A stretch of 64,000 nt of DNA, from assembly GCA_964485495.1 (NCBI GenBank), contig CAZAKE010000001.1, positions 7,906 through 71,905 of the forward strand, read 5' to 3'. This document shows positions 9,341-43,096 of this stretch, in pieces. How positions within the stretch are numbered: the stretch's first letter is position 1; each line of letters begins with the position of its first letter. Below the pieces are notes generated by a model. The model worked only from the letters and a program-made list of their open reading frames with translations. It was not told where the DNA came from and did no database searches. The stretch comes from an uncultured Spirochaetales bacterium (lineage in GTDB: Bacteria > Spirochaetota > Spirochaetia > CAZAKE01). The position numbers and the translations under genes are program-made.

Positions 9341-9907
9341 TCAGCTCAGAAAGGAGTCCGGTATCCGGACTGCACCGGATCGAAGCACGGAATAGGGAGT
9401 ACGGGCGAGGTCCAGGATGGTGGACGGAACGGCTTCCGGCAGATCGCCTGCGGTGACGAGGAGGTCCACCAGATCGCCAAACTCCGCGACGATGGTATCG
9501 ACGGACCGCGAATACGGTCGGCCCTCACGGTTGACACTCGTCGAATAGAGCGGCTTGTCCAGTCTACCGAGTAACCGCAGGAGAAACGGACTGTCGGGCA
9601 TGCGGAGGGCCACGGTACCACCCGAATAGGTCGGCACTATCAGCGTGAGTGGCCCGGGCCACAGTCGGAGGATCTCATCCGGTATCTTCAGACCGGAGTA
9701 GGCCGTAATATCCCGACTTCCGATCAAACGAATATATGGTTTGTCCGAGCTCCGGCCCTTGATATCGCGGATCCTCCGCTCCGTCTCGGGAGCCTTGCCT
9801 ACGATGCCGTATATCGTATCACACGGTACGATGGCGACACCGTGAGAGTCGAGTAGATCGAAAGTGACGTCGTGGACCGTAGCGTCGTCTACATCGAGAA
9901 TCTTCAC
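9341..9907 (-). CDS. tsaC: L-threonylcarbamoyl-AMP synthase (YrdC/Sua5 family, short form)
   Basis: PCDTIYG, IKGRSSDKP, WPGPLTL, VALRMP, STSVN, PSTILD. GTG start inferred from a GTGA overlap with the upstream stop. Confidence 0.92.
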   Translation of the reverse strand: MKILDVDDATVHDVTFDLLDSHGVAIVPCDTIYGIVGKAPETERRIRDIKGRSSDKPYIRLIGSRDITAYSGLKIPDEILRLWPGPLTLIVPTYSGGTVALRMPDSPFLLRLLGRLDKPLYSTSVNREGRPYSRSVDTIVAEFGDLVDLLVTAGDLPEAVPSTILDLARTPYSVLRSGAVRIPDSFLS

Positions 9908-10398
9908 CTCGATCCCCGCGAATTTCCGGGGAACGAGGTGAGGAGAAAGCCGACGAGTGCCGCGAGTACGCATGCAGTCGCTCGAATGAAGCCGGAGAAG
10001 GGCATATACGGGCGTGGTTTCTCGAGGATGGAGCCGATCCTGTGCGAGATCATGCCGGTCTCGAGTCCTTCGATCCTCACGACACGCTCTCCCGGCCGGT
10101 AATACCCCAGAGATCGCGCGGCCAGCGCGATCGGCTCCGAATCACTCCGTAGTGCTTCCAGCTGTTCGGTGAGGATTCCGTTTCGCTCCGACAACTGGAT
10201 ACTGTTATCACGCAGTCTGTCGCGATAGGCCAACAATCTCTTCGTCGCCTCGGTTCCATCGGGACCCCATGCAAACGTGAGTACGGCATGTACGACGAAG
10301 GCACAATACAGCGCCAGGAGTAATCTGTACCCAATTTTCACGGTCGGTTTGCCCCGATTGCTCTCAGGCGTTCGCTCCGGATCGTCGCCATTATTCAA
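9904..10398 (-). CDS. Septum formation initiator family protein (FtsB/DivIC-like)
   Basis: TM helix followed by GPDG, a coiled coil, then LRSDSEPIALAARSLGYYRPGE. Start uncertain (possibly GTG 10341). Confidence 0.8.
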   Translation of the reverse strand: MNNGDDPERTPESNRGKPTVKIGYRLLLALYCAFVVHAVLTFAWGPDGTEATKRLLAYRDRLRDNSIQLSERNGILTEQLEALRSDSEPIALAARSLGYYRPGERVVRIEGLETGMISHRIGSILEKPRPYMPFSGFIRATACVLAALVGFLLTSFPGNSRGSR

Positions 10399-10697
10399 GA
10401 CCTCGTTGTATCTTCGTTCGATTCAATCTTCTACTTCAGAATAACGGATTAATTTGGAGATCCATTTAGCGAAAAGCGCCGTTCATCGGGGGTATCCGCA
10501 CCCGTATCGGTATTCACCTCCCCCGATTCCCCTGAGCCTCCCCTTCCACGGTGGAGTTTCAATAGTTTTCAGAAATGCTATTGTGTCCAGGGGGATTTTT
10601 ACCGAAACATATGGTAGGAATTGTTCGCATGACCTATACTTGTAATGGGAGCATCGGACGAATTAGAGATAAATACCGCAAATATCCGTCACCGGAG

Positions 10698-10725
10698 TTA
10701 ATGGTAGATTGAATTTTACCGAAAT
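10698..10725 (+). promoter_or_regulatory. Possible sigma28 (FliA)-like promoter TTAA-N16-ACCGAAAT
   Basis: Resembles the TAAA/TTAA-N15/16-GCCGATAA consensus; lies 31 nt upstream of the acidic protein start. Confidence 0.35.
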
Positions 10726-10756
10726 ATTCAGTATCGTGACCATGTAGGAGAGAAGG

Positions 10757-13700
10757 ATGTCCAGTGAAAACCAAAGAGATCCGGAACTTGATTCGATAGA
10801 AGACGACCTGGACCTTGAGAGCCTTCCGGAGGAAACAAATCTTGATCAAGATCTTGATTTGGACCTTGATTCAGCGTCGGAAGATACCGACGAATCCGAT
10901 CTCGAACAGTACGGCGTGTGGGTCAAGGTGGGACCGGAGGACATCCTCGATAGCGATGAACTCGAGGGTGAGGAATCCGATTTCGATTTAGCGGATCTGG
11001 AGGATTCATCCGAGAAAAAGGGGGCGCTCCTCACCGAGGAGGAGGAGGAGCTTCTCGGAAGCCTCGAAGGCGAACTCTCATCGGAAGATTTCCTGGAGGA
11101 TATCCAAGAAGATACGGAATCGATCCAATCCCTCGAACTCCCTGAAGAAGAAGAGGAAGGAGAAGAGGAAGGAGAAGACCAGGTAACCGACGATTCCGAT
11201 ACATCGCCGGCCTTCGAAGATGAAGACGACTTCGATATGCCCGATATTCCCGATCTCGATGACGACATGCAGGATTTTGATTTAGAAGTCGAAGAAGTAG
11301 AAACAGCCGACACCGACATAGATACCATAGAATCAGAAGTAGAAAGCCAAGAACCGGTAGACCAGATCGAAGAGGCCGGGGCGGAAGAGTTACCGGATGA
11401 ATCCTCGGCAGCCGAGGCAACCGCTGATGTCGTCTCCGATACCGAGTCCACCGATTCTACCGAGGAGATGGATTTCGACCTTGACATCGAAGATATCGAA
11501 GAGAGCGACCTGGAAGAGCAATCACTCGAGACAGAGGAAGAATCTGAAGATCTCGAGGAGGTTTCCTTAGACGATTTCATCGCCGATACCGAGACATCCA
11601 TCGACGAAACCTCGATCGATGAGCCGTCTGGCGGATTGGAAGAAATGGATTTGCAGGAGGAGGGAGAGGACATCTTCGACGTACCCGTAGAGGAGATCGA
11701 TTCTCTCGACCTCGAATCTGCGGAATCCTCGGAGGAAGCCTTCGGCGATCTGTCGGTCGAAGAGCTCGAAGAGGAAGAACTCGAGGAGATAGATATCGAC
11801 GCACTCGATGGATCGGAGGCGGCGGACGAGTCTTCTGAGCCGGAAATTGATTCTGAGCCGGAAATTGATATAGAAGAGATTGGAGACGAGGACGAGATTG
11901 GCGAGATGGAATCCGAACCACTCGATCTCGACATCGACGATGAGGAACTCGCCTCACTCGACGAGGAGCTGGAGAGTCTCGACCGTGAATTGGATAGCCT
12001 CGGCGACGACTCGGAAGTTCAGGAAACCGCCGATACCGACCTCGACGATGGGGAATTGGCCTTAGAGGATATCGAAGAGATCGAAGGACTCGATTCTCCG
12101 GAGGAACCCGCGTCCGCCGAACCCGAAGAGGCGGAACTCGAAATTGTGGATTTCGACTCGGACGATGACACGGAAGAAGAAGATTCTATAGGAATACCGG
12201 AAGCCGAGGAGACTGCCGAGGAATTACCGGAGATCGACCTCGACACATTGGAGGAACCGGAGGGCGAACCGGAACCGATAGAATTCGAAGCGGATGAGTT
12301 TACCTCAGACGACATCGAAGAGGTTGATCTTTCGGATATCGATGAAACCATCGATGAAACCATCGAAGAGAACATCGAAGAAGAACTCGATATGGAAACA
12401 GCGGAAGACCACCCCGAACACCCGGCGGTGGAATCCGCAACCGCGGAACCCGAGGCAGAACCCGAGAAAGAAGCACCGTCTCAGGACAGATCCTCAGAAA
12501 TCCTTGGGAAAATTGAACAGGAACTACTCGCCATCAAAGGCGAATTATCTTCACTCAAGCTGGAATTGTCTCACCTCAAGCAACCGGAAGAGGCGGAAGT
12601 GGCTCCATCGGATGAAGGGGATGAAGAGGCCGCCGCAGGGTTCTTCGACGAGGACGATGACGAGACGATCGCACTCACCGGGGATGAGTTGGATAACATA
12701 CTCAACACAGCCGATATAACGGAAGAGGCGGGAGAGGCGAGCGAGGCCCCGGAAGATCTCATGCTGGACCAGGAGATGGGGCTCATATTCGATCAGGAAT
12801 CATCTCAGACCGAAGAGGCGACGACCCTCAAGGAAGAGGTTCCCGGCGAGGATATCGATGATGGCCCGTTGAGTGATCGGGCGGACATCATTCCCGCAAC
12901 CGGTGATGATGAGAGCGCCCAGGATTCAGCAGACACCGATCTTGATACTGATGCGGACCTCTTGGAAGATCAACCCGATTTTCTGGAAACCGAACCAGAT
13001 ACGGAAGAACTCGATCTGTCCGACCTCGAGTTTGAAACTCCCGATGAGGGATCCGAGCCGGAGGTTGACGACGCACTCCTCTCCGAATTCGCTGAAGAAC
13101 CTGCCATTGAGATTGAATCCGAAGAGGCGGAAGCGGATGAAGCGGATATAGTCGACGAGATGGAGATCGATATTCCGGTTACCGGATCTCCGCAACCCGA
13201 TGAGCCCCCCGTCAAGTCGAGCGAGTCGGATCAATCCGTAACTGACGATTCTGAAGATACGGAAATCTCGACAGAAGACGTAGATATTTCGGATTTCGAC
13301 AGTATCGAGTTTGAGGATCTCCCCGAAGAGAGCGCAGAGGAAGAGGAGTCTGAGCTTGAGCTTCCTGAGGAGGAATTCGTCCTCGAAGAAACCGTCGAAG
13401 CAACAGAGGAACCGGATACTGCATCTGATGCGACCATTGTCGACTCGGATGAGATCGAGTTAGATATTCAATCTTTAGAAGATCTTGAAGAGATACAAGA
13501 AGAGAAAGAGAAAGAGGAAGAAGAATTCATCGATCTGACCTTCGAAGAAGAAAACGAAGATGACGGCCTGACGACACTCGATATCGATGCTGATGACTTG
13601 AAGTTGGGATCGGAACAGGACCATTCCGAAGAACCCGACGAGGTCGTTCTTGAAGCGGAGGAGGCCGAGGAACCGGAAGAGCTTCCGGCACAGGATGAGG

Positions 13701-13921
13701 AGATGGAGTTCGGATCGGCTCTTTCAGAAGAAGGAGTCGAGGGGGATGAGGAAGCCGACTCGGAAATACCGGATCCGCTCAAGAGCGAATTACGATCTGT
13801 GTTGAGCTATATGGACCAGCTTCTCGAAGCCTTGCCCGAAGAGAAGATCGAAGAGTTTGCCAACTCCGAACATTTCGACGTATATAAACGGCTCTTCGAG
13901 GAACTCGGTCTCCGTAGCTGA
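10757..13921 (+). CDS. Very large, extremely acidic, low-complexity hypothetical protein (1054 aa)
   Basis: SD AGGAG. D/E-dominated and almost K/R-free except for four ordered islands: YGVWVK, a coiled coil, FFDEDDDETIALTGDELDNIL and a C-terminal helical domain. Confidence 0.9.
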   Translation: MSSENQRDPELDSIEDDLDLESLPEETNLDQDLDLDLDSASEDTDESDLEQYGVWVKVGPEDILDSDELEGEESDFDLADLEDSSEKKGALLTEEEEELLGSLEGELSSEDFLEDIQEDTESIQSLELPEEEEEGEEEGEDQVTDDSDTSPAFEDEDDFDMPDIPDLDDDMQDFDLEVEEVETADTDIDTIESEVESQEPVDQIEEAGAEELPDESSAAEATADVVSDTESTDSTEEMDFDLDIEDIEESDLEEQSLETEEESEDLEEVSLDDFIADTETSIDETSIDEPSGGLEEMDLQEEGEDIFDVPVEEIDSLDLESAESSEEAFGDLSVEELEEEELEEIDIDALDGSEAADESSEPEIDSEPEIDIEEIGDEDEIGEMESEPLDLDIDDEELASLDEELESLDRELDSLGDDSEVQETADTDLDDGELALEDIEEIEGLDSPEEPASAEPEEAELEIVDFDSDDDTEEEDSIGIPEAEETAEELPEIDLDTLEEPEGEPEPIEFEADEFTSDDIEEVDLSDIDETIDETIEENIEEELDMETAEDHPEHPAVESATAEPEAEPEKEAPSQDRSSEILGKIEQELLAIKGELSSLKLELSHLKQPEEAEVAPSDEGDEEAAAGFFDEDDDETIALTGDELDNILNTADITEEAGEASEAPEDLMLDQEMGLIFDQESSQTEEATTLKEEVPGEDIDDGPLSDRADIIPATGDDESAQDSADTDLDTDADLLEDQPDFLETEPDTEELDLSDLEFETPDEGSEPEVDDALLSEFAEEPAIEIESEEAEADEADIVDEMEIDIPVTGSPQPDEPPVKSSESDQSVTDDSEDTEISTEDVDISDFDSIEFEDLPEESAEEEESELELPEEEFVLEETVEATEEPDTASDATIVDSDEIELDIQSLEDLEEIQEEKEKEEEEFIDLTFEEENEDDGLTTLDIDADDLKLGSEQDHSEEPDEVVLEAEEAEEPEELPAQDEEMEFGSALSEEGVEGDEEADSEIPDPLKSELRSVLSYMDQLLEALPEEKIEEFANSEHFDVYKRLFEELGLRS

Positions 13922-13935
13922 TGTTATACGAGTAG

Positions 13936-15042
13936 ATGAGTAGTCCGGCAACCGACGGCACACACGGATTATTCGAGAGAGCTCGACGCCTTCGAGAAGC
14001 TCTCAACACGCAGCCACCCACGCAGATGGACAAACAACCGTGTCCACAATCGGGCACTCGGTCCGTCACGACGCTGCCCGCGAAGAATACCATCGAGGTC
14101 GAACCGAATTCACCGCAAACGCCATCGTTACGGTTAGACGTCGATACGGTTCTAGAACAGGTGAAGGCCCTACGTCCCGGACAAGACCCAGCGATCCCAC
14201 TTTTCACGATACTCCGATCGGTATTTTCCGTGAAAAAGGGCGCGTTCCTCCTGCCCCAGACGATACCACGGAGTCCGGACGAGGCGGTATTGCTACCGTA
14301 CGCAGTCAGGGGATACGACGAAACGACAAAAACCCGTCTCCGTCTTCCGGTCTCTCGTTTCGGACAAACTCGATTGATCACCGGGGACGGACTCACCGCG
14401 ATGCGGCCATATTTCTCGATGCGGGAATATGACATGCTCCGGAGGGTGGTATGTATCCCCTTTCGTGACGGGAGAACCGTACTCGGATGTTGTCTCATCA
14501 GCGATCCGGCACTCACCCAAGATCAGTTTGCCCAACTCGAACAGTTCCTGCGACACACACACGACTCGATTTCTTCCTACCTCGCTTCCTGTATTCCGAA
14601 CAGACTGCGAGAAGGACACCGACCGAGGATATCCCACCATCCGGCGTTGCACGAGATCGTCGAATCGGTCTCCCGACTGGCCGGCTCGCTTTCGAATCGG
14701 GGGAATCGTCTCCTATTGTTGAAGATCCGGATAGACAACCTGATAGATTCGGTCTGCCGGATCTCGCCGGATGCGGTCCCGTTCAGGGTTCGAGAGGAGA
14801 TCTATGGCCTCCTCGACAGGATGGTATCGGGCGTAGGGGAGATGTTCATCTTCGATACAGGATCGGTACTCCTGGCAATCACGTTTCGCTCCGTCGGGAG
14901 GCCCGAAATGTTTGTACACCAGATCAGAGGAGCCGTCGGCAGGATGTATTCCGCGGAGGTTCCGATGCCTGATTATCAGACCGGGTTGGTCTCAGGTTCG
15001 GACTCGGAGATCTCGACATTGGTCACGGATCTAACCAGTTGA
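13936..15042 (+). CDS. Hypothetical protein, GAF-like domain plus degenerate GGDEF-like C-terminus
   Basis: KGAFLL...PYAVRGYD...VVCIPF...LGCCLISD looks like a GAF pattern. The C-terminal alpha/beta unit lacks GG[DE]EF. Fold calls are by eye. Confidence 0.55.
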   Translation: MSSPATDGTHGLFERARRLREALNTQPPTQMDKQPCPQSGTRSVTTLPAKNTIEVEPNSPQTPSLRLDVDTVLEQVKALRPGQDPAIPLFTILRSVFSVKKGAFLLPQTIPRSPDEAVLLPYAVRGYDETTKTRLRLPVSRFGQTRLITGDGLTAMRPYFSMREYDMLRRVVCIPFRDGRTVLGCCLISDPALTQDQFAQLEQFLRHTHDSISSYLASCIPNRLREGHRPRISHHPALHEIVESVSRLAGSLSNRGNRLLLLKIRIDNLIDSVCRISPDAVPFRVREEIYGLLDRMVSGVGEMFIFDTGSVLLAITFRSVGRPEMFVHQIRGAVGRMYSAEVPMPDYQTGLVSGSDSEISTLVTDLTS

Positions 15043-16703
15043 GCTGTTCTTTTCACGCATCAAAATCGGGAGCCACATACGCGATACAGGATGGAATCCG
15101 CCTACACTCTAGTTACGACCCGAGAAAGGAGGCATCTCGGTTCGTCGAAGGGGAGTTGTCGTCGGCTTCCACGAAGACCGTAATCGTGATCGGTGCCGGT
15201 TTCAGATACGTGGAAGAGGCGATCGTTACAATGTACCCCGGAACCAGGGTACTCTCCTTCGAGTGCAGCCGTGATTTTGCCAATCGGCACGCGGACAGAC
15301 AGCAGACGAACGAGAAAAAGGCGAAATCCGCCATCTGGTATCCCGGCGGTCATGAAACACCGGCAACCTTCTTACGACGACAACTCGACGAACTGTCGAC
15401 GGTAGGAATACGGATACTCGAATGGCCCGCGAGTATAAGAGCGTTTCCCTCTGAAGTCGCGCGGATTCGCGAAAGTATCGCAATTTTCCTGCGGGAGACC
15501 AACGGCAACATAATGACCGTCTCAAAATTCGGCAGGCGGTGGATCCACAACACCCTCGTTAACGCCTTATCCGCGGAAAATCCGCAGACTATTTCCGGTG
15601 TAGAAGGACCGGTATTCATCGCGGCGTCCGGGAGTTCTTTGGCATCCTGTCTGTCTTTTCTTACCCGGCATCGACACAGAATCTCTCTCTGGGCATTGCC
15701 GTCATCTCTCCGCTTCCTCGAGGAGCACAACCTTACCCCCGATATTATCGTTGCCACCGATGCAGGATATTACGCTTCGGTGCACCTGCGGTTTCCATCA
15801 CAACACCCAATTCGGATTGCAATGCCGATCACGGCCGCTCCGCCCCCTCCGACTTCGGAGATTGTCTTGTTCAGGCAAGATACGGTACCGGAAGCACTGA
15901 TATTCGAAGGTCGGTCTATGAAACCCGATGAATCGGATATTGTGAGTATTCCCGAAAACGGTACGGTAGCCGGAACCGCCCTACAGATCGCCGTTCGGTC
16001 GGGTGCCCATTCCGTGATATTCGGTGGTCTCGATCTATGTATACAAGGTTTGATAGCACACGTCCGCCCCCACTCCTTCGATGAGATCCTGTTTACGGCG
16101 ACCGGAAGGCTCAAGCCGCTCCCATCGGTTCTGGCTGCACGCATGATAGCTGCCGGCGGATACCATATTCACGAAGACTGTGTCGTAACCGCTCCCCTGC
16201 GAACCTTTCACGGCTGGTTCGATCGGTTCTGTGCGTCGGCACCGATCCCGATCTACCGACTCAATCCATCACCTATCGATGTCACGGGAACCATACCGGT
16301 AGATCCGGACTCGGTGGACGGGATCTTCCAGGACGCGCCGTTACCCCGCTTTGCCATGAAAACACCGGTGACATATCCGAAATCAGAGATGATTCCGGAC
16401 AGGATCGACCAGGTCCTCGGACGCTGGGCCAATGACGTGCGGCAGTCGGCACTCACTGCGTGGGATGAATTTTGCTACAACGCCGATACCACACCGTACA
16501 CCCGACCGAACACACGCCGATATCCCCTCGATCTCATTCGATACTGGGACTATCCCGGCCTACTCGACGCGTATCGCAGAACAATCAATGAAGGGTTCGA
16601 AACGGGACGACGACATGTACGGGAGGTAGCCGATAGATGCTCGATAGAACTCATCGACGTACAGGAGAGGGTACGCAATGCCCGCCGACAGTCAGATACT
16701 TGA
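15039..16703 (+). CDS. Maf/DUF115 (MptE-like) family protein, putative flagellin glycosyltransferase, copy 1
   Basis: LHSSYDPRKEA, VIGAG, FGRRWIHNTLVN, FIAASGSSL, PDIIVATD, NGTV, FGGLDL. TTG start overlaps the upstream stop (TTGA). Confidence 0.8.
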   Translation: MSCSFHASKSGATYAIQDGIRLHSSYDPRKEASRFVEGELSSASTKTVIVIGAGFRYVEEAIVTMYPGTRVLSFECSRDFANRHADRQQTNEKKAKSAIWYPGGHETPATFLRRQLDELSTVGIRILEWPASIRAFPSEVARIRESIAIFLRETNGNIMTVSKFGRRWIHNTLVNALSAENPQTISGVEGPVFIAASGSSLASCLSFLTRHRHRISLWALPSSLRFLEEHNLTPDIIVATDAGYYASVHLRFPSQHPIRIAMPITAAPPPPTSEIVLFRQDTVPEALIFEGRSMKPDESDIVSIPENGTVAGTALQIAVRSGAHSVIFGGLDLCIQGLIAHVRPHSFDEILFTATGRLKPLPSVLAARMIAAGGYHIHEDCVVTAPLRTFHGWFDRFCASAPIPIYRLNPSPIDVTGTIPVDPDSVDGIFQDAPLPRFAMKTPVTYPKSEMIPDRIDQVLGRWANDVRQSALTAWDEFCYNADTTPYTRPNTRRYPLDLIRYWDYPGLLDAYRRTINEGFETGRRHVREVADRCSIELIDVQERVRNARRQSDT

Positions 16704-18348
16704 TCGAAACCTTCTCGCCTTGGCGAATACCGATCCGGGACTCGCGTCGATGGTTACCGAGGCCGAGTACGATCCGGCAATACGATTCGAAACGGCGAGA
16801 ACCGGAGATCCCGTGCCGGTTCTCCGTACTTCAAACCGCGATATCTTCCTGCACTCGAGGTTCGATCCCCGTAAGGAAGCCCGACGGTTGTGTGACTCCT
16901 ACCCGAATGGCGGATACTTCGTGTTTCTCGGCTTCGGCGGTGCGTATCAGATCCTCCCGTTTTTGGAGAAGACCGATACCCTGGCCGTGACAATCATCGT
17001 TCGACGATTGGGCCACTTCAGGACGGTCCTCGCCCATCTGGATCTACGGAAGCTGTTGATGGACCCACGTGTCTCTATCCTGGTAGATCCGGATCACGTC
17101 CGACTGCATGGCCATATCCTGAACCACTACCATCCTGCCCTGCTGGGAGACATGCACGTCGTTCCGCTGCGCTCCATCTATGATGTCGAACCGGAGACCT
17201 TCGAGGCCTACATCACGGAAATCAGGGAAGTTCTCGGTAATATCGCGGACGACTATACCGTTCAGACACGGTTCGGAAAACGCTGGTTTATCAATACCAT
17301 CATGAATTTACCGTTTGCCGAGATCTCGTCATACAGACTACCCCAGGTAAAACGGGCAGCCGTCACGGGTGCCGGTCCCTCATTGGACATACAACTACCC
17401 CACCTGCGGCGTATTCGTGATGATGTATTTCTCATTGCCACGGATACCTCGCTGCCTTGCCTGGGGCGGAACGGCATCGTGCCGGACCTGGTGATCTCCA
17501 TCGATTGTCAACACGTGACGTATCACCACTTTCTCGACGGCATACCCGAGGGGGTACCGCTGCTGCTCGATCTCGCCTCGCCTCCATCCATCACCCGACT
17601 CACCGACAGGCTTTTGTTTTTTCAGAGCGGACATCCCTTCTCGCAGTATGTTGCCCGCTACTGGCGGCAATTCCCGTATATCGACATCACCGGTGGAAAC
17701 GTGAGTCACGCCGCCGTCTCTCTCTCCGACGAACTCGGGGCGGAGGAGATCATCCTGTTTGGACTCGACTTCTCCTATCCCGAGGGCAAGACCTATGCGA
17801 AGGGAACCTATGTATACCGATATTTCAGGAAGGATGAGACGCGGCTCAGACCCTGTGAGAGTCAGGCATTCGCGTTTCTCCTGAGGAACGAGAATATAAT
17901 CAAGGAACCGCTGGGATCTGTATTCCGATATACCACGAAGCCGATGATCAGTTATAAAGAACGATTGGAACGGGTCTCCGGCAGTCTGTCCGCCCGATTG
18001 CATCAGGTGGAGGGCATCGGGCTCGAGCTCCGGACGAATTCGCCTCTGAAGAGACGACCACGGAATCTCGGTCTTCTCTTCTCCGCCGGGGCCTCAGACG
18101 GCACTTGGATGGAATTCGTTTCGGACTACCTCGACCGTATCAGGAATCTACCTGATCCGTCCGGTGAATATCCGGGTTACCTTACGACCCTCGACACGAT
18201 GGATTTGGATCTATGGAAAACAATGTATCCTGCGGCCGCATCGATCCGCAGAGAACTCCCGGAAGGCTCCTTCGGACCGTTGGAGGTCATGTCGAAGGCG
18301 CGTGATTGGACGGTCAGAATACTCGGTCAGGCGTTGAATCGGGGTTGA
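16678..18348 (+). CDS. Maf/DUF115 (MptE-like) family protein, putative flagellin glycosyltransferase, copy 2
   Basis: LHSRFDPRKEA, FLGFGG, FGKRWFINTIMNL, GAGPSLD, IATDTSL, PDLVISID, GGNVSHAA, LFGLDFSY. Confidence 0.85.
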   Translation: MPADSQILDRNLLALANTDPGLASMVTEAEYDPAIRFETARTGDPVPVLRTSNRDIFLHSRFDPRKEARRLCDSYPNGGYFVFLGFGGAYQILPFLEKTDTLAVTIIVRRLGHFRTVLAHLDLRKLLMDPRVSILVDPDHVRLHGHILNHYHPALLGDMHVVPLRSIYDVEPETFEAYITEIREVLGNIADDYTVQTRFGKRWFINTIMNLPFAEISSYRLPQVKRAAVTGAGPSLDIQLPHLRRIRDDVFLIATDTSLPCLGRNGIVPDLVISIDCQHVTYHHFLDGIPEGVPLLLDLASPPSITRLTDRLLFFQSGHPFSQYVARYWRQFPYIDITGGNVSHAAVSLSDELGAEEIILFGLDFSYPEGKTYAKGTYVYRYFRKDETRLRPCESQAFAFLLRNENIIKEPLGSVFRYTTKPMISYKERLERVSGSLSARLHQVEGIGLELRTNSPLKRRPRNLGLLFSAGASDGTWMEFVSDYLDRIRNLPDPSGEYPGYLTTLDTMDLDLWKTMYPAAASIRRELPEGSFGPLEVMSKARDWTVRILGQALNRG

Positions 18349-35943: not shown

Positions 35944-37944
35944 CTACTTCCGATCTAGTCGCAACATGATCCTGCAGGTCCAGGTCTTCTGCGGTTCCAG
36001 TCGCAGGTGCCATCGGGGAACGACACAGGTCGATTGATACCGAGATACTATTGGCGTTTCGGCGTTTCCGGGTGCGGCATTGCTGTATATCGGAAGACTC
36101 CACAGATCGAACTGCTTGGAACCCGTGATGGTTATGAGGACCCTATTCGCCCTATCGTGCATCCGAACCGTCTTGGCGGCAGACTCGGTAACCGGTTTCA
36201 GCCCGTCGAGTTCCTTCTCCTCACCCACCGTGATCTTCAACGATTCGGCCCGGTTGTCATTGAAAGAGAGGTTCACTTCCGATCCGAATACGGATTCAAG
36301 GGTCTCGACGCCGTCATTCGTGATTCCGTAGTGGATGGAGATGAAATTCTTCCTGAAAATATATTTCTTCTGCAGACGTACCGGAAATTCCGTCTCTCCG
36401 CAGACGACATTGCCGTCTCGGACGAAGGTTATCTCCTTGTGGTCTCGATCGAGAGATTCGATCTCGAACTCCCTCTCAATGAAGTTGCCCTGTTCGATCT
36501 GTCTCCCGGAAGCGAATGCCTCGATCGTATCATCCGCCGGCATGAAGTGATCGATGAAGGCACTGCGATGATAGGTATCGAAACAGGCATGTTGCGTATC
36601 GTGTTCGAGTTCACGGTACCTGGTCATCGTATCGAGGAAATTCCAACACCTCGGCAGGTAATCCAGTTCGAACAGGACCCCGCCGAGTCTATGCGTATAG
36701 GCGTTCAGGGTTTGCCCCTGGTAGAGAAACTCATCTCCACCATCCATGTCTATGTCAACCGCGGTGAGACTCGTCTTGAATATGCCCCGCTCCCGGGTGA
36801 TCTTCTCAGCCTCGATCAGAGCGCTATACGCCGCCTTCCGCACACAACTCCGGTAGAGACATCCGGAAGGTCCGTGCCAGTATGCACTGTTACACTGCCC
36901 CTTCCATAGCTGGTATTTGGCCGTCTTCTTCCTCGAGCGATCACCGCGGATCTGATTCACCAGCATATAGACATACATCATCTTCGCGTACAGGAGGTTG
37001 CTCTCGTGATACTTGGAGAGGAACTGCCTGAAGTAGCCTGCCCGGAGGAATGAACTCGATTCACCGCCCTCCTTCTCGAGTTTGTGCAGGACAGCCTGCT
37101 GGTCGATAGGAAACGGAAGGCTCGATATCTCCCTCCTCATCGCCGACGGGAAATAGACTTTACTTCTCGGTGAGGCACTTCGGGCGTACACCCCCGGAAG
37201 TACCGCGTCTATCGACTCTTTGTGCCGCTCCGTCTCGATGAAGAACTCCTGAAGCCATGCGAAAGAGGCGTTGTTCGACTTTGAAGTTGAACTGAAAGAT
37301 AATCCGTCCATCATGATTACGACCATCTCATGGTCGTCTTTCGCCGACAGTTGTACGATATGATCCACCATTGCGGCGGGCGATATCGTGCCGATCTGTG
37401 AGGTAAACGTGTTCGAGATGGGAAACACGAGGACTCCCTTCCCCTGTTCCTCGGTGATATAGGGCTGGAAAACCGAGGAACCGTTGAGTCCCGCCAAATT
37501 TAGGTGCCAATCGTCGAGAAAGATGAAATCGATGCCGTTATTCTTGAGCGTCAGGGCAAGGTTCGTCTCCCACACCCGCTCGGTAATCCAACCACCACGG
37601 GGTCGTTTCCCAATCTTTTTACGAATAAAGGTGGTCAGATACTCGATCTGGCCGACCCTATCGGTCACGGGAATCAGCGGCAAGATGGGATCGTAGTATC
37701 CGCCGCCGAGGATTTCAACGCTTTTGTTTCGAACCATCTCACTCAAGAGAATGAGTACTTCCGGGTGTTTCTCATCGAACCATTCGAGGAGGATTCCCGA
37801 GTAGTGCAATGTTACGGGGATGTTGCTGTTTTCATATATCAGCGAGAGGAAGGGTTTTATCGAGGCTTGATACCGCTCTTCTATCGTGTCGTCTTTATAC
37901 CCAATGGGAATTGAATTATACGTGCCGATTATCAGACTGATCAT
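35944..37944 (-). CDS. GH57 alpha-amylase/4-alpha-glucanotransferase-like protein (GH57 plus C-terminal DUF1925/1926-type domains)
   Basis: LHYSGILLEW, EILGGGYYDPIL, GWITERVWE, FLSKYHESNLLYAKM, GQCNSAYWHG, DIDMDGGDE, YQSTCVVPRW. Confidence 0.88.
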   Translation of the reverse strand: MISLIIGTYNSIPIGYKDDTIEERYQASIKPFLSLIYENSNIPVTLHYSGILLEWFDEKHPEVLILLSEMVRNKSVEILGGGYYDPILPLIPVTDRVGQIEYLTTFIRKKIGKRPRGGWITERVWETNLALTLKNNGIDFIFLDDWHLNLAGLNGSSVFQPYITEEQGKGVLVFPISNTFTSQIGTISPAAMVDHIVQLSAKDDHEMVVIMMDGLSFSSTSKSNNASFAWLQEFFIETERHKESIDAVLPGVYARSASPRSKVYFPSAMRREISSLPFPIDQQAVLHKLEKEGGESSSFLRAGYFRQFLSKYHESNLLYAKMMYVYMLVNQIRGDRSRKKTAKYQLWKGQCNSAYWHGPSGCLYRSCVRKAAYSALIEAEKITRERGIFKTSLTAVDIDMDGGDEFLYQGQTLNAYTHRLGGVLFELDYLPRCWNFLDTMTRYRELEHDTQHACFDTYHRSAFIDHFMPADDTIEAFASGRQIEQGNFIEREFEIESLDRDHKEITFVRDGNVVCGETEFPVRLQKKYIFRKNFISIHYGITNDGVETLESVFGSEVNLSFNDNRAESLKITVGEEKELDGLKPVTESAAKTVRMHDRANRVLITITGSKQFDLWSLPIYSNAAPGNAETPIVSRYQSTCVVPRWHLRLEPQKTWTCRIMLRLDRK

Positions 37945-37977: not shown

Positions 37978-38850
37978 CTAGTTTTTCTTTGCCGGCGTCC
38001 GAGTTTTCAATGACTCCTTCGATTCTATAATGCTATCTTTTTCTCTACACTCGTCGCGAACCGGCACGATACACTTGGTCGGACACGCCGCGACCGCCTC
38101 GTAGCGGCTTCCCTTCGTATCATAATCGATTTTCGCGAGGAAGTCGTTGATCTCGAATCCCCCATCCGGCGACTTCTTGTTGCACAGTCTACATCCCAAA
38201 CAACCCACCGTGCAATACTTCCGAACCACCCCTCCCTTGTCTGTGGAATTGCAGGCCACCGCGACATCCGCATCATCGGGGATCATTCGTATCACCCCGG
38301 TGGGACACACGGCGACACATTTCTCACACGAGATGCACAGGTCGGGGTCGACACGGACCAACCCGCCCTTGGTGTAGGATATGGCGTCTACCGGACACTC
38401 CCGGACACAACTTCCGAGACCGAGGCATCCGTATTTACACTGCTTGTCACCCTTGAAGAGAGCATATACCGCGTTGCAGTCGGAGAGCCCCTGGTACGCA
38501 AAGGCCTTCTCGGCTCTCTGATCGTCACCTCGGCAATGGACGAAGGCGACCATCCGCCGTTTCGACTGTGAGACGGACACTCCGAGGAGATCGCCTAATC
38601 GTTCGGCCACATCGGGGCCGCCTGGGATGCATAGGGTCACACCGGCCTCACCGGTCTGCATGGCTTCGGCATAGGAAGCGCACCCCGCATACCCGCAGGC
38701 GCCGCAGTTCAATCCCGGCAGTATAGCATTAATCTCCTCGACAGTCTCATCCTTCTTTACGGCCAGTAGGCGTGCGGCCACGGCCAGCCCGATTCCGAAC
38801 AACCCGCCGAGAAGCCCGACAACAATGAGAGAATAGAGTATGCGTAACAT
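37978..38850 (-). CDS. rnfB: Rnf complex subunit B
   Basis: LPGLNCGACGYAGC, CIPGG, CKYGCLGLGSCVRECP, CISCEKCVAVCP. Confidence 0.95.
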   Translation of the reverse strand: MLRILYSLIVVGLLGGLFGIGLAVAARLLAVKKDETVEEINAILPGLNCGACGYAGCASYAEAMQTGEAGVTLCIPGGPDVAERLGDLLGVSVSQSKRRMVAFVHCRGDDQRAEKAFAYQGLSDCNAVYALFKGDKQCKYGCLGLGSCVRECPVDAISYTKGGLVRVDPDLCISCEKCVAVCPTGVIRMIPDDADVAVACNSTDKGGVVRKYCTVGCLGCRLCNKKSPDGGFEINDFLAKIDYDTKGSRYEAVAACPTKCIVPVRDECREKDSIIESKESLKTRTPAKKN

Positions 38851-38892
38851 CCGTATCGTTCCTCCAGTGGCTCTACGCGACCCGGCTTCGAC

Positions 38893-39483
38893 CTATCCGA
38901 TCAAGTTATTCAGCAGCGCCTTGTCGAATGCCATGAATGCCAGGGCCATGAGCCCGCCGGTGATAAAGGCAATCGGGATTCCACGAAACGGCTTCGGGAT
39001 CCACTCCGTATCGAGCCGTTCGCGAATTGTGGACATGAGGACGATGGCCAGAAGAAATCCGAGGCCGGCGGCGAACCCGGCAACGAAACTCTCGAAGGCA
39101 GTATATCCGCTTCGCACCGAAATGAGCGCGATTCCCATGACCGCACAATTGGTCGTAATCAGGGGAAGGTATATTCCCAAGGCCTTGTACAACGGTGGCG
39201 ATATCTTCTGTATCACCATTTCTACCAGCTGTACGAGGGCGGCGATGACGAGTATGAACGAGATCGTCTGCAAAAACTCCAAATGGAGCGGTAGCAGTAT
39301 CAGGTTGTGAATGGCCCATGTCGTTACGGATGCGAGGGACATGACGAAAGTGACGGCAAACCCCATTCCTACCGCGGATTCCACATTCTTCGAGACGCCG
39401 ATGAACGGACATAGTCCGAGAAACTGCGCCAAGATGAAGTTGTTCACAAATATGAATGTGATCAAGATAGCGATATACGTCAT
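38893..39483 (-). CDS. rnfA: Rnf complex subunit A
   Basis: NNFILAQFLGLCPFIGVS, GIYLPLITTNCAVMG. Confidence 0.96.
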   Translation of the reverse strand: MTYIAILITFIFVNNFILAQFLGLCPFIGVSKNVESAVGMGFAVTFVMSLASVTTWAIHNLILLPLHLEFLQTISFILVIAALVQLVEMVIQKISPPLYKALGIYLPLITTNCAVMGIALISVRSGYTAFESFVAGFAAGLGFLLAIVLMSTIRERLDTEWIPKPFRGIPIAFITGGLMALAFMAFDKALLNNLIG

Positions 39484-39493
39484 TGCGCTACTC

Positions 39494-40099
39494 CTACTTC
39501 TCGAAGATCGTGAACAGGGCCTTCAGATACCCAACCACCAGGAGCGCACCCGCCGCCAGCGACATGATGCGCGCCGGGGCGGAGATGAGACCCGGAATCT
39601 CGATGACTCCGTCGAAGCTGCCGATGGGAAAGACGGTGATGGTCCCTGCCCCCAATGACTCCCGAAATAGGGCGATCAAGGTCAACCCCAAGGTGAATCC
39701 CACCCCCATTCCAAGGGCATCGAGAACCGATTCCGTAACTCCGCGCTTTCTCGCGAATGCCTCGGCCCGACCGAGAATCACACAGTTCACCACGATCAAC
39801 GGTACGAAAATGCCCAGGTTCTTGAAGAGCTCAGGCAGGAAAGCCTCCATGACCATCTCGACGACGGTGACGAAAGATGCGATGATTACGATGTATGCGG
39901 GTATCCGAACCTTCTCCGGGATAAAATCTCGGAGAAGAGATACGAAGATGTTGGAACCGAGAAGGACGAAGATCACACCGCCGCCCATTCCAAGGGCATT
40001 GACGACCTTGGTGGAAACGGCCAAGGCCGGACAGAGTCCCAACACGATGATGAAGATGGGGTTCTCCCGTATCAATCCTTTGGTGAACTCCTTGATCAT
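39494..40099 (-). CDS. rnfE: Rnf complex subunit E
   Basis: RENP...LGLCPALAVS, FVPLIVVNCVILGRAEAFA. Confidence 0.96.
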   Translation of the reverse strand: MIKEFTKGLIRENPIFIIVLGLCPALAVSTKVVNALGMGGGVIFVLLGSNIFVSLLRDFIPEKVRIPAYIVIIASFVTVVEMVMEAFLPELFKNLGIFVPLIVVNCVILGRAEAFARKRGVTESVLDALGMGVGFTLGLTLIALFRESLGAGTITVFPIGSFDGVIEIPGLISAPARIMSLAAGALLVVGYLKALFTIFEK

Positions 40100-40659
40100 G
40101 ATTCAACCTCCACGAGAGAACGGATGAATTCGGATCCCGTGGCCAACGCGCCGGCGATACCCTGAAAGGTGATACTCGCCCCCGTGACGGCATCCGCATC
40201 GGACGGCGACAGCCGGCTCTTGCGGGTCGGGACCGGTACATCCGCACCTGTATCGATAAACATCTCCATATATTCGGGCCGCTCCGCCTCCTTCCCGAGT
40301 CCCGGAGTCTCATCGTTCTCCATCAGCCGGGCGGATCGAATCCGCCCTTTCGGGGTATATCCGGCCAGGATCAACATCTCACCGCCGTAGCCTTCGCCGG
40401 AGAGAACCAGGATGTACCCGATCGTCCGCCCGGCGCTATTCACCAGCGGATAGTAGGCGGAAACATGTTTCGAACCGTCGACCTCGATCCGATCTCCGGG
40501 TTCTCCCTCGAAGCTCACCGCGGCAAGGGTTTCCTGCAGGCGCTGAGCTTTCCGGTATTCGATCCGAGTCTCCGTGACGGCGTTGACAATCCCGAGGGAG
40601 AGCGCCGCGACGGCGCAGATCAGGGCCAACTTACTTCCGATCTTGAGAAAATCGTTCAT
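40096..40659 (-). CDS. rnfG: Rnf complex subunit G
   Basis: N-terminal TM, GYGG, ETPGLG, FMN-attachment motif DAVTGASIT. Confidence 0.92.
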   Translation of the reverse strand: MNDFLKIGSKLALICAVAALSLGIVNAVTETRIEYRKAQRLQETLAAVSFEGEPGDRIEVDGSKHVSAYYPLVNSAGRTIGYILVLSGEGYGGEMLILAGYTPKGRIRSARLMENDETPGLGKEAERPEYMEMFIDTGADVPVPTRKSRLSPSDADAVTGASITFQGIAGALATGSEFIRSLVEVES

Positions 40660-41747
40660 CGTCCGGGCTCCTCCGCCTTCCTGATGCCGAAGCGCTTCGG
40701 CTCGGTGATTCGGTTGATAGCGGGAACGAAGATATTCATCAAAATGATGGCCAACGACACCCCTTCCGGAAAAGAACCGTAATATCGGATGAGGAAGGTC
40801 AGGAATCCCGCTCCCGCGCCGAAGATGATCATTCCCATTCTACTCAAGGGCGACGTCACCATGTCGGTAGCCATGAAAAAAGCCCCGAGGAAGAGTCCGC
40901 CGGAAAAGAGGTAGACAAGGAAGTCGCCGTTGAAATACCCGCTTCCATACCGAACCCCCCCGAGGATCCAGGTGAGCACGCCGAAGGTGGCCAGATATGC
41001 GAGTGGAATCTCCCAGTTGGCGATGCCGAGAATGAGCAGGATTACACCGCCGAGGAGAATCAAGATTGCGGATACCTCACCGATACAGCCGGGTACGTTC
41101 CCGATAAACTGATCCAACACGAGCGGATCGACGGACCAACCGAATGCTTCGGAGATCCGGTGGGCGATACGCTCTCCCATCGGACTCGCCGGATACCCTC
41201 CGATATTCAGGAGGTCGATCGATCCGCCGACGGGTTCTTCCAAGTCCATGAGTCGGGTCTTGAGGAACCCGAGAGGAGTCGCCGAACTGACTGCATCCAC
41301 CGCCCAGGTTTTCGGCATCGTCCATCTGGTCATGGACCCGGTCCAAGAGAAGAACACGAACACCCTTCCGGCCAGAGCCGGATTCATCCAGTTTCCCCCG
41401 AGGCCGCCGAAGGTCCACTTTACTACCAGGATTGCGAATGCCGATGCCATGACGGGGACATAGAGATTCACCTCGGGGGGCATGTTGTATCCGACCAGCA
41501 GACCCGTCAGAAAGGCGCTGCCGTCCCACAGGGTAAATTCCTTGCATACCAGCGCCGCCAGGGCCTCGAATATGACCGCCGAGAGGACCGCCGCCAGCAC
41601 CGTCACCGCGGCCCTGGCTCCGAACACATACACCCCCCACGCGCCGGCAGGCAAAAGACACGCAGAGACTACCCACATTATCATGGTGGTTGAATGGCGG
41701 TGGTGTATTTGTGGAGAAACGGTAACCACCATTTCACGGGTTTTCAT
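40656..41747 (-). CDS. rnfD: Rnf complex subunit D
   Basis: SPQIH, FGGLGGNWMNPALAGR, DAVSSATPL, PGCIGEVS, AFFMATDMVTSP. Confidence 0.96.
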   Translation of the reverse strand: MKTREMVVTVSPQIHHRHSTTMIMWVVSACLLPAGAWGVYVFGARAAVTVLAAVLSAVIFEALAALVCKEFTLWDGSAFLTGLLVGYNMPPEVNLYVPVMASAFAILVVKWTFGGLGGNWMNPALAGRVFVFFSWTGSMTRWTMPKTWAVDAVSSATPLGFLKTRLMDLEEPVGGSIDLLNIGGYPASPMGERIAHRISEAFGWSVDPLVLDQFIGNVPGCIGEVSAILILLGGVILLILGIANWEIPLAYLATFGVLTWILGGVRYGSGYFNGDFLVYLFSGGLFLGAFFMATDMVTSPLSRMGMIIFGAGAGFLTFLIRYYGSFPEGVSLAIILMNIFVPAINRITEPKRFGIRKAEEPGR

Positions 41748-41770
41748 TCATCCATCCTCGATTTACTTCC

Positions 41771-43096
41771 TCAGTTGCCCTTCTTTCTGAGCAGATTCTT
41801 CCCCAACTTCATCCCCTGTACCAATGGGATGTGTGCGGGACAGACGTATCCGCAACAACCGCACTCCTTGCAATCCAAAAGGCCGATCTCACGGGCTTCA
41901 TCATACAGCTGATGATCTATGTATTTGAACAGTCGAGTCGGATTTAATCCCATGGGACACGCTTTCACACACCGTCCGCAGGAGAGACAATTCGTACGCC
42001 GACTCCCGCGCACCTCCCCGGCGGTGAGAGCCAAGACACCCGAGGTCCCCTTGATTACCGGCGTATCCAGATCGTAGACCGAGAATCCCATCATAGGACC
42101 GCCGGCCACGATCTTGGCAGGCTCCTTGATGAATCCGCCGCACTCCTCGATCAGACTGCGAAAGGGCGTCCCGAAACGGGTCTTCAGGTTCGCGGGTTCG
42201 GCGACCGCCCCTCCGGATACCGTCACCACTCGCTCGATGAGCGGTTTTTCGAGGACCACCGCCTCATATACGGCGTTAACGGTGCCGACGTTTGAGACCA
42301 CCGCACCAATCGCCAGGGGAAGTTCTCCCGACGGCACCTCTCGGCCGGTGATCGCCTTGAGCAGTTGTTTTTCATCCCCCTGCGGATACTTCAACTTCAG
42401 TGGAATCACCGACAGTTTCATACCCGATCTTCCGGCCGCAGCCCGCATCGCCTCTATTGCATCGGGCTTGTTCTCCTCGATGCCGATGGAAACAGATTCC
42501 GGAGATAAGATGGCGGCAACGATGGCGATTCCCTGGATGACCGCGTCCGCCTTCTCTACCATGATTCGATGATCGGCGGTAAGGTACGGCTCGCACTCGG
42601 TTCCATTCACCACAAAATCTCTTACCTTGGATCCTGCGGGAATATTGAACTTCACGTGTGCGGGGAAAGTGGCCCCGCCGAGGCCGACGACGCCCATCTC
42701 GGCGATCTTGGCGAGCAACTCCTCTCTCGCGTACTGCTTCCAATCGAGACTCCTGCCGGGTTTCCCGAGACGGTCGAACTCCCCCTCCGTGTCGATGACG
42801 ATTGCCGATGTTTCGATGCCGGCAGGGAGGTAGATACTCCTGATCTCGGATACGACACCGGGAACCGGGGAGTGGACGTTGGCAGAGATATACCCGTCCG
42901 ATTCACCGATGAGAACCCCCTCGCGCACGGTGTCTCCCGGTTCAACTACCTGAACGGCGGGCTTTCCTAGGTGCTGCAATAACGGTACCACGAACTGTGA
43001 GGGGAGTACCGCATTCTTGATGGCTTCGTGATTGGTCCTAGATTTTGTATCGGGGGGATGTACGCCGCCTTTTTTGAAGGTATGGGTCGTGCTCAT
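41771..43096 (-). CDS. rnfC: Rnf complex subunit C
   Basis: GGVHPP, QHLGKPA, VHSPVPG, NGTECEPYLTAD, YPQGDEK, CLSCGRCVKACP, CKECGCCGYVCP. Confidence 0.96.
   Translation of the reverse strand: MSTTHTFKKGGVHPPDTKSRTNHEAIKNAVLPSQFVVPLLQHLGKPAVQVVEPGDTVREGVLIGESDGYISANVHSPVPGVVSEIRSIYLPAGIETSAIVIDTEGEFDRLGKPGRSLDWKQYAREELLAKIAEMGVVGLGGATFPAHVKFNIPAGSKVRDFVVNGTECEPYLTADHRIMVEKADAVIQGIAIVAAILSPESVSIGIEENKPDAIEAMRAAAGRSGMKLSVIPLKLKYPQGDEKQLLKAITGREVPSGELPLAIGAVVSNVGTVNAVYEAVVLEKPLIERVVTVSGGAVAEPANLKTRFGTPFRSLIEECGGFIKEPAKIVAGGPMMGFSVYDLDTPVIKGTSGVLALTAGEVRGSRRTNCLSCGRCVKACPMGLNPTRLFKYIDHQLYDEAREIGLLDCKECGCCGYVCPAHIPLVQGMKLGKNLLRKKGN

Follow-up and report, generated by a model that had tools for sequence, protein, structure and literature searches.

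What is the function of a large protein in which more than two residues in five are acidic, and why has selection kept a few short patches of it almost unchanged? This question is raised by a gene on the + strand of a 64,000-nucleotide (nt) stretch of DNA from an uncultured Spirochaetales bacterium (the whole of this stretch is referred to here as the window). Comparison with its relatives indicates that this gene is real and under selection, and that its hyper-acidic product adds a member to a protein family that is catalogued but uncharacterised, 'TP_0179' (Pfam PF27359). The explanation that we favour, and to which we give roughly even chances, is that the protein, a late flagellar product located in the cytoplasm, serves as a disordered multivalent tether in concert with a module of Maf proteins encoded downstream of it. 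The gene and its ribosome-binding site are located as follows.

10757-13921, + strand: gene for the hyper-acidic protein, 1054 residues, a PF27359 'TP_0179' member, read from the earliest start listed after a stop
10746-10751, + strand: Shine-Dalgarno sequence AGGAGA, 5 nt ahead of the ATG at 10757, read from the sequence

Membership and reach of the TP_0179 family

When the C-terminal 70 residues of the acidic protein were used as query, 686 proteins were retrieved, with E-values to 1e-18 and identities of 60-86%, and all 120 matches listed, of these 686, are annotated with PF27359; membership of the window protein is thus assigned through homology to proteins that carry the family annotation. 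Neither Pfam nor NCBIfam gave a match when scanned with the complete protein or with its conserved islands one by one; the island-by-island check is one that an earlier reading of this DNA from sequence alone had proposed. In an exhaustive search of clusters formed at 50% identity, the C-terminal domain was matched in 1708 cluster representatives, and among the matches listed it nearly always constitutes the last 55 residues. When one genome is counted per species, relatives are found in at least 463 species genomes, of which the named ones all belong to Spirochaetota and include the genera Treponema, Alkalispirochaeta, Sediminispirochaeta, Marispirochaeta, Spirochaeta and Thalassospirochaeta. 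The 121 family proteins compared here are 580-1312 residues long and contain 26-42% aspartate plus glutamate (D+E) and 1.9-6.2% lysine plus arginine (K+R). The window protein is among the longest and is the most acidic of them (42.3% D+E; the rest range from 26 to 41.5%, with a median of 34.1%). It has the four islands of the family in the family order, and the gene order DivIC/TP_0179/Maf/Maf of its locus is found also at a locus of Treponema sp. TIM-1 (L002).

The family extends across Treponema and the free-living Spirochaetia and includes TP0179 of T. pallidum, the agent of syphilis. Published work mentions TP0179 solely as a 'hypothetical protein'; it notes a recombinant segment and amino-acid changes fixed by lineage, and the gene is among the few of the syphilis agent that show both. 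Its fixed non-synonymous changes accumulate alongside those of surface proteins. A separate observation concerns a non-acidic protein of 317 residues (P0121; L084:6001-6954), in which two tandem TP_0179 C-terminal domains stand behind an unrelated N-terminal domain. The C-terminal module is on this account autonomous; the genomic neighbours of P0121 are uninformative.

Composition of the acidic protein

Glutamate accounts for 26.0% and aspartate for 16.3% of the residues, 42.3% in all, and lysine and arginine together for 2.2%, giving a net charge of -423; there is no cysteine and a single tryptophan. The sequence-only reading, which had estimated by eye some 40% or more of acidic and very few basic residues, was accurate in this respect. 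The 41 other long open reading frames (ORFs) of the window contain 6-19% D+E, and the acidity is therefore specific to this gene and not proteome-wide, so that halophily or a generally acidic proteome was rejected as its source. Recurring 'DLDL/ELDL' microrepeats had also been noticed, and these do exceed the expectation from composition: the pattern [DE]h[DE]h, where h is a hydrophobic residue, occurs 27 times as against 9.6 +/- 3.2 times in shuffled sequences, none of 1000 of which reached 27. Runs of four acidic residues are depleted (15 versus 33.4 in shuffles), as are adjacent pairs of hydrophobic residues (30 versus 53.6), and the hydrophobic residues are accordingly dispersed evenly among the charges. 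Tandem repeats in the DNA of the gene are short, with 2-4 copies of 9-21 nt, and on these grounds an origin of the gene by tandem repetition was rejected. An antisense ORF of 362 codons at 10846-11934 was discarded as a serine-rich by-product of GAN codons and not a gene.

The highest mean hydropathy over 19 residues (Kyte-Doolittle) is 0.53 and falls within the coiled coil described below, there is no transmembrane segment, and the N-terminus is acidic and not signal-like; together, these features point to a cytoplasmic location. The window sequence was traced to a microbial-mat metagenome, and the runs that hold it consist of metagenomic DNA only.

Four conserved islands in acidic spacers

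The acidic background is interrupted by four islands, which together with the two long spacers divide the protein as follows (pLDDT, predicted local distance difference test).

10901-10942, + strand: island 1, LEQYGVWVKVGPED, residues 49-62, a conserved N-terminal short motif (alignment and pattern)
10943-12478, + strand: acidic spacer 1, residues 63-574, predicted disordered (pLDDT below 50 nearly throughout)
12479-12580, + strand: island 2, residues 575-608, one long helix (pLDDT above 90)
12638-12727, + strand: island 3, GFFDEDDDETIALTGDELDNILNTADITEE, residues 628-657, the most conserved linear motif (alignment and pattern)
12728-13765, + strand: acidic spacer 2, residues 658-1003, predicted disordered (AlphaFold)
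13766-13918, + strand: island 4, from I1004, C-terminal three-helix domain with the PF27359 signature (AlphaFold and family)

In an alignment of 79 family sequences, which underlies all of the conservation figures below, columns that are invariant or at least 90% conserved are almost confined to the islands, whose order does not vary among some 120 homologues. Between them, the spacers retain only their charge: the distance from island 1 to island 3 ranges from 166 to 917 residues and that from island 3 to island 4 from 183 to 588, a five-fold variation in spacer length, while the net negative charge remains at 0.20-0.50 per residue. AlphaFold2, supplied with the same alignment, gives a pLDDT below 50 for 898 of the 1054 residues (85%), and the only parts modelled with high confidence are the coiled coil at 575-608 and the C-terminal three-helix domain. 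The sticker-and-spacer anatomy proposed by the sequence-only reading is upheld by this pattern and by the predicted disorder; one condition that it had named for its own rejection, a lack of island conservation among homologues, does not hold; and the positions that it gave for the four islands are all correct to within a few bases. Its description of the islands as ordered holds for the coiled coil and the C-terminal domain but not for island 1 (pLDDT ~43). The view that they are the only complex segments needs a similar qualification: the four are indeed conserved, but AlphaFold predicts additional, weaker helices at 94-120, 395-414, 526-540 and 911-924, although these are not conserved.

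Island 1 centres on YGVWVK (residues 52-57, nt 10910-10927), a pattern present in 118 of the 121 family proteins, and Y52, G53, V54, W55, V56, K57 and P60 are each shared by all or at least 90% of the aligned sequences. It is a likely docking peptide, one that probably folds only on a partner. In island 2, a coiled coil runs from S579 to K608 (nt 12491-12580) with a 3-4-3-4 heptad spacing of L583, I586, L590, I593, L597, L600, L604 and L607; I586, E589, L590, I593, E596 and L600 are invariant or nearly so. This coiled coil probably self-associates. The invariant or near-invariant residues of island 3 are G628, F629, F630, D635, E636, I638-G642, E644, L645, I648, L649, T651, A652 and F654-E656; its pattern occurs in 120 of the 121 proteins, and for it AlphaFold predicts, at moderate confidence (pLDDT ~60), a short helix at 643-651.

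The helices of island 4 span 1006-1025, 1028-1035 and 1038-1049, with a pLDDT of ~80-88 in the full-length model and 83.8 when the domain is modelled alone. Its conserved columns (invariant or at least 90%) extend from V1015 to G1051, and the C-terminal signature SVLSYMDQLLExLPxxKIEEFAxSEHFxVYKxLFEELG is present in 120 of the 121 proteins. A Foldseek comparison of the island 4 model with the PDB gave no match with E <4, and profile searches of the PDB gave only insignificant matches for island 4 and none for island 3. Two insignificant likenesses of the C-terminal domain, to a MICAL bMERB helix (E = 0.0056 over 33 residues) and to the N-terminal part of FliG (E ~0.55), were set aside because the Pfam models for FliG and MgtE give no match.

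An operon with two Maf genes

The acidic gene appears, from the spacing of the genes that follow it, to be the first of a four-gene operon encoding the acidic protein, a 368-residue protein and two Maf-like proteins, taken to be flagellin glycosyltransferases of Maf type, beyond which lies, on the other side, a divergent neighbour that does not belong to the unit.

13936-15042, + strand: second gene of the operon, 368-residue protein, 14 nt after the acidic gene (ORF list)
15039-16703, + strand: Maf-like protein 1 (MptE-like/DUF115; Pfam PF01973, E = 1e-13), the start of which overlaps the preceding stop
16678-18348, + strand: Maf-like protein 2 (MptE-like/DUF115; Pfam PF01973, E = 3.4e-29), with a 26-nt overlap with Maf 1
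9904-10398, - strand: FtsB/DivIC-like gene, the divergent neighbour outside the unit (Pfam PF04977, E = 3.2e-8)

The gaps between the four genes are 14, -4 and -26 nt, and no convincing + strand terminator was found inside the operon. Conservation of the arrangement was assessed in 82 related loci, 60 of which have at least 3 kb of downstream DNA; in all 60 a Maf gene lies downstream on the same strand within 3.5 kb. The neighbouring proteins in the window share only 30-49% identity with their counterparts at any of the related loci. For the 368-residue protein, which has no sequence match in Pfam, NCBIfam or the PDB, a homologue can be detected in the gap that separates the acidic gene from Maf in only 28 of the 60 loci; its conservation is therefore much poorer than that of the acidic protein or of the Mafs. 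Maf2 matches PDB entry 5mu5 (E = 3.9e-4), which we take to be the structure of a Magnetospirillum Maf, and also, at the level of a domain and far below the family cut-off, the NCBIfam model 'flagellin modification protein PseD' (E = 2.7e-15). The two paralogues are unequal: Maf2 shares up to 49% identity with its relatives, whereas Maf1 shares ~32-35% and has no PDB or NCBIfam match.

Of 53 related loci, 39 have the DivIC-like gene upstream in divergent orientation. In the lineage of a Treponema sp. metagenome-assembled genome (MAG Crp329_bin9), the acidic-protein/Maf unit leads directly into a flagellar switch gene, a complete fliM (L074:10284-11312; Pfam FliM, E = 6e-81) that begins 73 nt past Maf2.

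A sigma-28-type promoter

The operon is preceded by a promoter candidate of flagellar type.

10698-10725, + strand: sigma-28 (FliA)-type promoter, TTAA-N16-ACCGAAAT, 32 nt before the start codon (motif match)

Its -35 element, TTAA, occupies 10698-10701 and is separated by a 16-nt spacer from the -10 element, ACCGAAAT, at 10718-10725; this is the only strict sigma-28-type match on either strand of the 64-kb window, and as a sequence match it conforms to the promoter form of the sigma-28 regulon, TAAA/TTAA-N15-16-GCCGATAA. The element is common among relatives, in most of which it lies at a matching distance, 30-60 nt ahead of the gene. CCGATA occurs on the + strand in 48 of 67 upstream regions, clustered at -60 to -20, compared with 4 on the - strand, and the -10 core is present in 59 of the 67, where 8.9% would be expected from the loci's own background. 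The complete bipartite motif is found in 36 of the 67 (0.66% expected), in none of the reverse-complemented regions and in 0.4 shuffled regions. In relatives, the element equals that of the experimentally mapped sigma-28 promoter of flaB2 in T. denticola, with -35 TTAA and -10 CCGATAA (PMC9481697). An Rfam scan of the 358-nt upstream region found no known RNA.

Through this promoter motif the operon looks like a sigma-28-driven late flagellar unit that would be co-expressed with flagellin, and the motif and the presence of Maf genes at 60 of 60 loci together indicate a role in late flagellar assembly and flagellin glycosylation. The sequence-only reading had taken a hint of a division or pole role from the divergent ftsB-like gene. 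That hint is weak: the neighbour is indeed common but it is separately transcribed, and the linkage to Maf and the promoter type are the stronger guides.

Two further observations concern the upstream DNA. A second copy of TTTTACCGAAAYAT lies ~118 nt upstream of the first (window 10596-10616 and 10700-10729), adjoining an ATGGTAG(G/A) word, and may be a weak sigma-28-like -10 element or a duplicated operator. In the 300 nt upstream of TP0179-like starts, TTGACA is strongly strand-biased (40 regions versus 5 on the other strand), which suggests that many relatives carry an additional -35 element of sigma-70 type.

Resemblance of island 3 to the N-terminal peptide of FliM

The core of the most conserved linear motif resembles a known flagellar peptide.

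12674-12706, + strand: core of island 3, LTGDELDNILN, residues 640-650, resembling the CheY-binding peptide of FliM, LSQ(A/E)EID(A/Q)LL(N/T)

The N-terminus of E. coli FliM reads MGDSILSQAEIDALLN, that of Treponema FliM MTEVLSQ(E/D)EIDQLLTA, and island 3 ETIALTGDELDNILNTA; common to the three is L-[ST]-x-[DE]-E-[IL]-D-x-[LI]-L-(N/T). A pattern based on residue classes had 82 matches within the family and 5 elsewhere in the 915,834 residues of six-frame ORFs searched, and one of these 5 is the N-terminus of the sole FliM in the data. When the pattern was restricted to the letters observed in the family, no match outside the family was found in these 915,834 ORF residues. The same segments are aligned by hhalign, with P = 0.13 and 0.051 against single FliMs and 0.021 for profile against profile over 12 columns. 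Like island 3, the FliM peptide is acidic, helical when modelled and found in a flagellar context. It is N-terminal, however, whereas island 3 is internal, with Gly for Gln, Asn for Ala/Gln and a variable Asp. Our assessment of the aligned sequences is that the resemblance is genuine but short, and modest in strength.

A homologue of 675 residues (P0115) contains two island 3 motifs, EDETIALTGDELDNILNTAEIT and EDSDETLTDDELDNILHTADIT, ~40 residues apart within residues 280-345, and variation in valency of this kind is typical of short docking motifs. A tblastn match to FliM at 40951-41196 of the window was weak and is actually RnfD.

A proposed mechanism and its alternatives

In the mechanism that we favour, the four-heptad coiled coil, and perhaps also the C-terminal three-helix domain, would hold copies of the protein together or bind a fixed partner, and clients would dock on two short peptides, the N-terminal YGVWVK and the FliM-N-like helix LTGDELDNIL. 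The long acidic spacers, with their well-mixed hydrophobic residues, would be non-sticky, self-repelling and soluble linkers, in which charge would matter and sequence would not. The protein would thereby organise or assist Maf-dependent glycosylation of FlaB and the late steps of assembly close to the export apparatus of the flagellum, and the FliM-like peptide may connect these processes to a reader of the motif, either phosphorylated CheY (CheY-P) or FlhG. Flagellin glycosylation is reportedly essential for filament assembly in T. denticola.

Several points weigh against this mechanism. The FliM resemblance spans 10-12 residues with P only 0.02-0.13, and the Asp that matches D12 of FliM is replaced by N, G or S in some lineages. 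Island 1 is without a known counterpart, and any role for the C-terminal domain is a guess because no solved fold matches it. The window -10 element, ACCGAAAT, is a weak and degenerate version of GCCGATAA; conserved gene order is no proof of physical partnership; and the literature gives no interaction, localisation or phenotype for any member of the TP0179 family. In a bolder version, the TP0179 family would fill the place of the polar hub missing from spirochaetes: self-associating, polyanionic and disordered, and produced along with the late flagellar genes, the protein would form a charged condensate or matrix beside the subpolar export gates, in which Maf and unfolded flagellin would be concentrated and, through the FliM-like peptide, CheY-P or FlhG docked. 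We consider this version a long shot. If true, it would link modification and assembly of the filament to switch signalling or to the control of flagellar number, through machinery that has no sequence relationship to HubP, FimV or PopZ.

Other explanations start from different parts of the same evidence. A polar or division landmark, that is, a condensate hub like HubP/FimV or PopZ that sits at the poles or septum and works independently of Maf, would suit the architecture, in which short binding motifs are set among acidic disordered linkers and the C-terminus forms a helical module, as well as the acid-hydrophobic alternation above chance, the divergent DivIC gene in 39 of 53 loci and the name 'pilus assembly protein FimV' that some JGI records give to relatives. 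Spirochaete flagella are subpolar, and the FliM-like peptide could capture FlhG, as HubP reportedly does in Vibrio. The acidic protein nevertheless lacks LysM, a transmembrane segment, the FimV C-terminal domain and a PopZ domain; DivIC has a promoter of its own and is transcribed divergently; a sigma-28 promoter is the hallmark of late flagellar genes and not of early genes for placement or division; and the linkage to Maf, at 60 of 60 loci, is stronger. We regard such a landmark as improbable. It is similarly unlikely that the protein is a mimic of FliM, binding CheY-P or FlhG through LTGDELDNIL so as to compete with the switch or to act as a sink or buffer, with its place beside Maf incidental. 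The resemblance and specificity of the motif, its two copies in P0115 and the adjacent fliM of L074 are in keeping with this idea, and chemotaxis genes are often late and sigma-28-dependent; yet the resemblance is short and statistically modest in the sequences compared, and the other three conserved islands and the invariant linkage to Maf are left unexplained.

The remaining alternatives place the emphasis on charge or on export. As a general polyanion, the protein would buffer divalent cations or polyamines, mimic nucleic acid or act as a holdase for basic proteins, with islands that serve only stability or turnover. Its net charge and 42% D+E, spacers conserved in charge and not in sequence, and the microbial-mat source of the metagenome are in line with this account. 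We hold it to be very unlikely, given four sequence-specific islands that are 70-100% conserved across very distant genomes, the equal presence of the family in host-associated Treponema, and a flagellar promoter and operon that would be unexpected for a housekeeping buffer. Export as a late type III substrate, to serve like FlgM as a periplasmic or secreted checkpoint signal, would be compatible with disorder, with a late (sigma-28-type) promoter such as that of flgM, with a conserved motif near the N-terminal start, and with the fixed non-synonymous changes that the T. pallidum orthologue gains alongside surface proteins. There is, however, no similarity to FlgM, for which the homologue reported in T. 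denticola is TDE0201; at 600-1300 residues the proteins are far larger than known late substrates; and no chaperone gene is linked. Of this explanation we think it extremely doubtful that it is correct.

For the tether acting with Maf, as for the family as a whole, the sigma-28-type promoter and the position at the head of a Maf operon make a concrete candidate, with a testable role, out of what was a 'hypothetical acidic protein'. The acidic protein also provides a clean natural case of bacterial disorder in which selection retains four short motifs and the charge of the linkers, but not their sequence.

Other genes of the window

An Rnf-type run of genes occupies 37978-43096, and a glucanotransferase-like gene lies beside it.

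37978-38850, - strand: RnfB-like gene
39494-40099, - strand: Rnf-Nqr membrane subunit
40096-40659, - strand: FMN_bind subunit
40656-41747, - strand: RnfD
41771-43096, - strand: RnfC
35944-37944: GH57 glucanotransferase-like gene

Comparison with known systems

In common with HubP/FimV of Vibrio and Pseudomonas, the acidic protein is large, very acidic and largely disordered and ends in a small C-terminal helical module. HubP/FimV is, moreover, linked to the organisation of polar flagella, and some TP0179 relatives have been named 'pilus assembly protein FimV' automatically in JGI records. The N-terminal, peptidoglycan-binding LysM domain and the transmembrane segment of HubP/FimV are absent from the acidic protein, as judged by Pfam and by the 19-residue hydropathy maximum of 0.53; the FimV N-terminal domain was likewise not found, and the C-terminal (TPR-like) domain of FimV has no Pfam or NCBIfam match in the whole protein or its last 72 residues at E-values to 1 and 10. 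The automatic label is best explained by composition. The acidic protein differs further in its apparently cytoplasmic location, its sigma-28-type promoter and its operon with Maf. PopZ of Caulobacter follows the same logic: clients bind a peptide at its N-terminus, helices at its C-terminus serve assembly, and its linker is acidic and disordered. The TP0179-type protein, which is confined to spirochaetes, is six times larger than PopZ and contains in addition a coiled coil and a FliM-like peptide; the C-terminal oligomerisation domain of PopZ (DUF2497) has no Pfam match in it, and there is no sequence relationship. As every defining domain tested is absent, the likeness to HubP, FimV and PopZ is one of design and not of descent.

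The sigma-28-binding domain of FlgM (Pfam FlgM) likewise has no match in the acidic protein, and the FlgM homologue reported for T. denticola, TDE0201, is a different protein (PMC9481697). With the TP0179 family, named after the T. pallidum protein, the window protein has the C-terminal signature, the island order and the gene neighbourhood in common, and it stands out as the most acidic and among the longest of the 121 compared. A precedent for the role proposed here is offered by the Maf-2 glycosyltransferases, which can need a non-enzymatic adaptor encoded in cis, GlfM, that bridges Maf and flagellin (bioRxiv 10.1101/2023.12.03.569772). Likened by description, GlfM and the acidic protein are both non-enzymatic, possess a small helical module and are encoded beside maf; GlfM, however, forms a four-helix bundle of 89 residues and its gene lies downstream of maf-2, whereas the acidic protein, with 1054 residues, is mostly disordered, is encoded upstream and carries a three-helix module.

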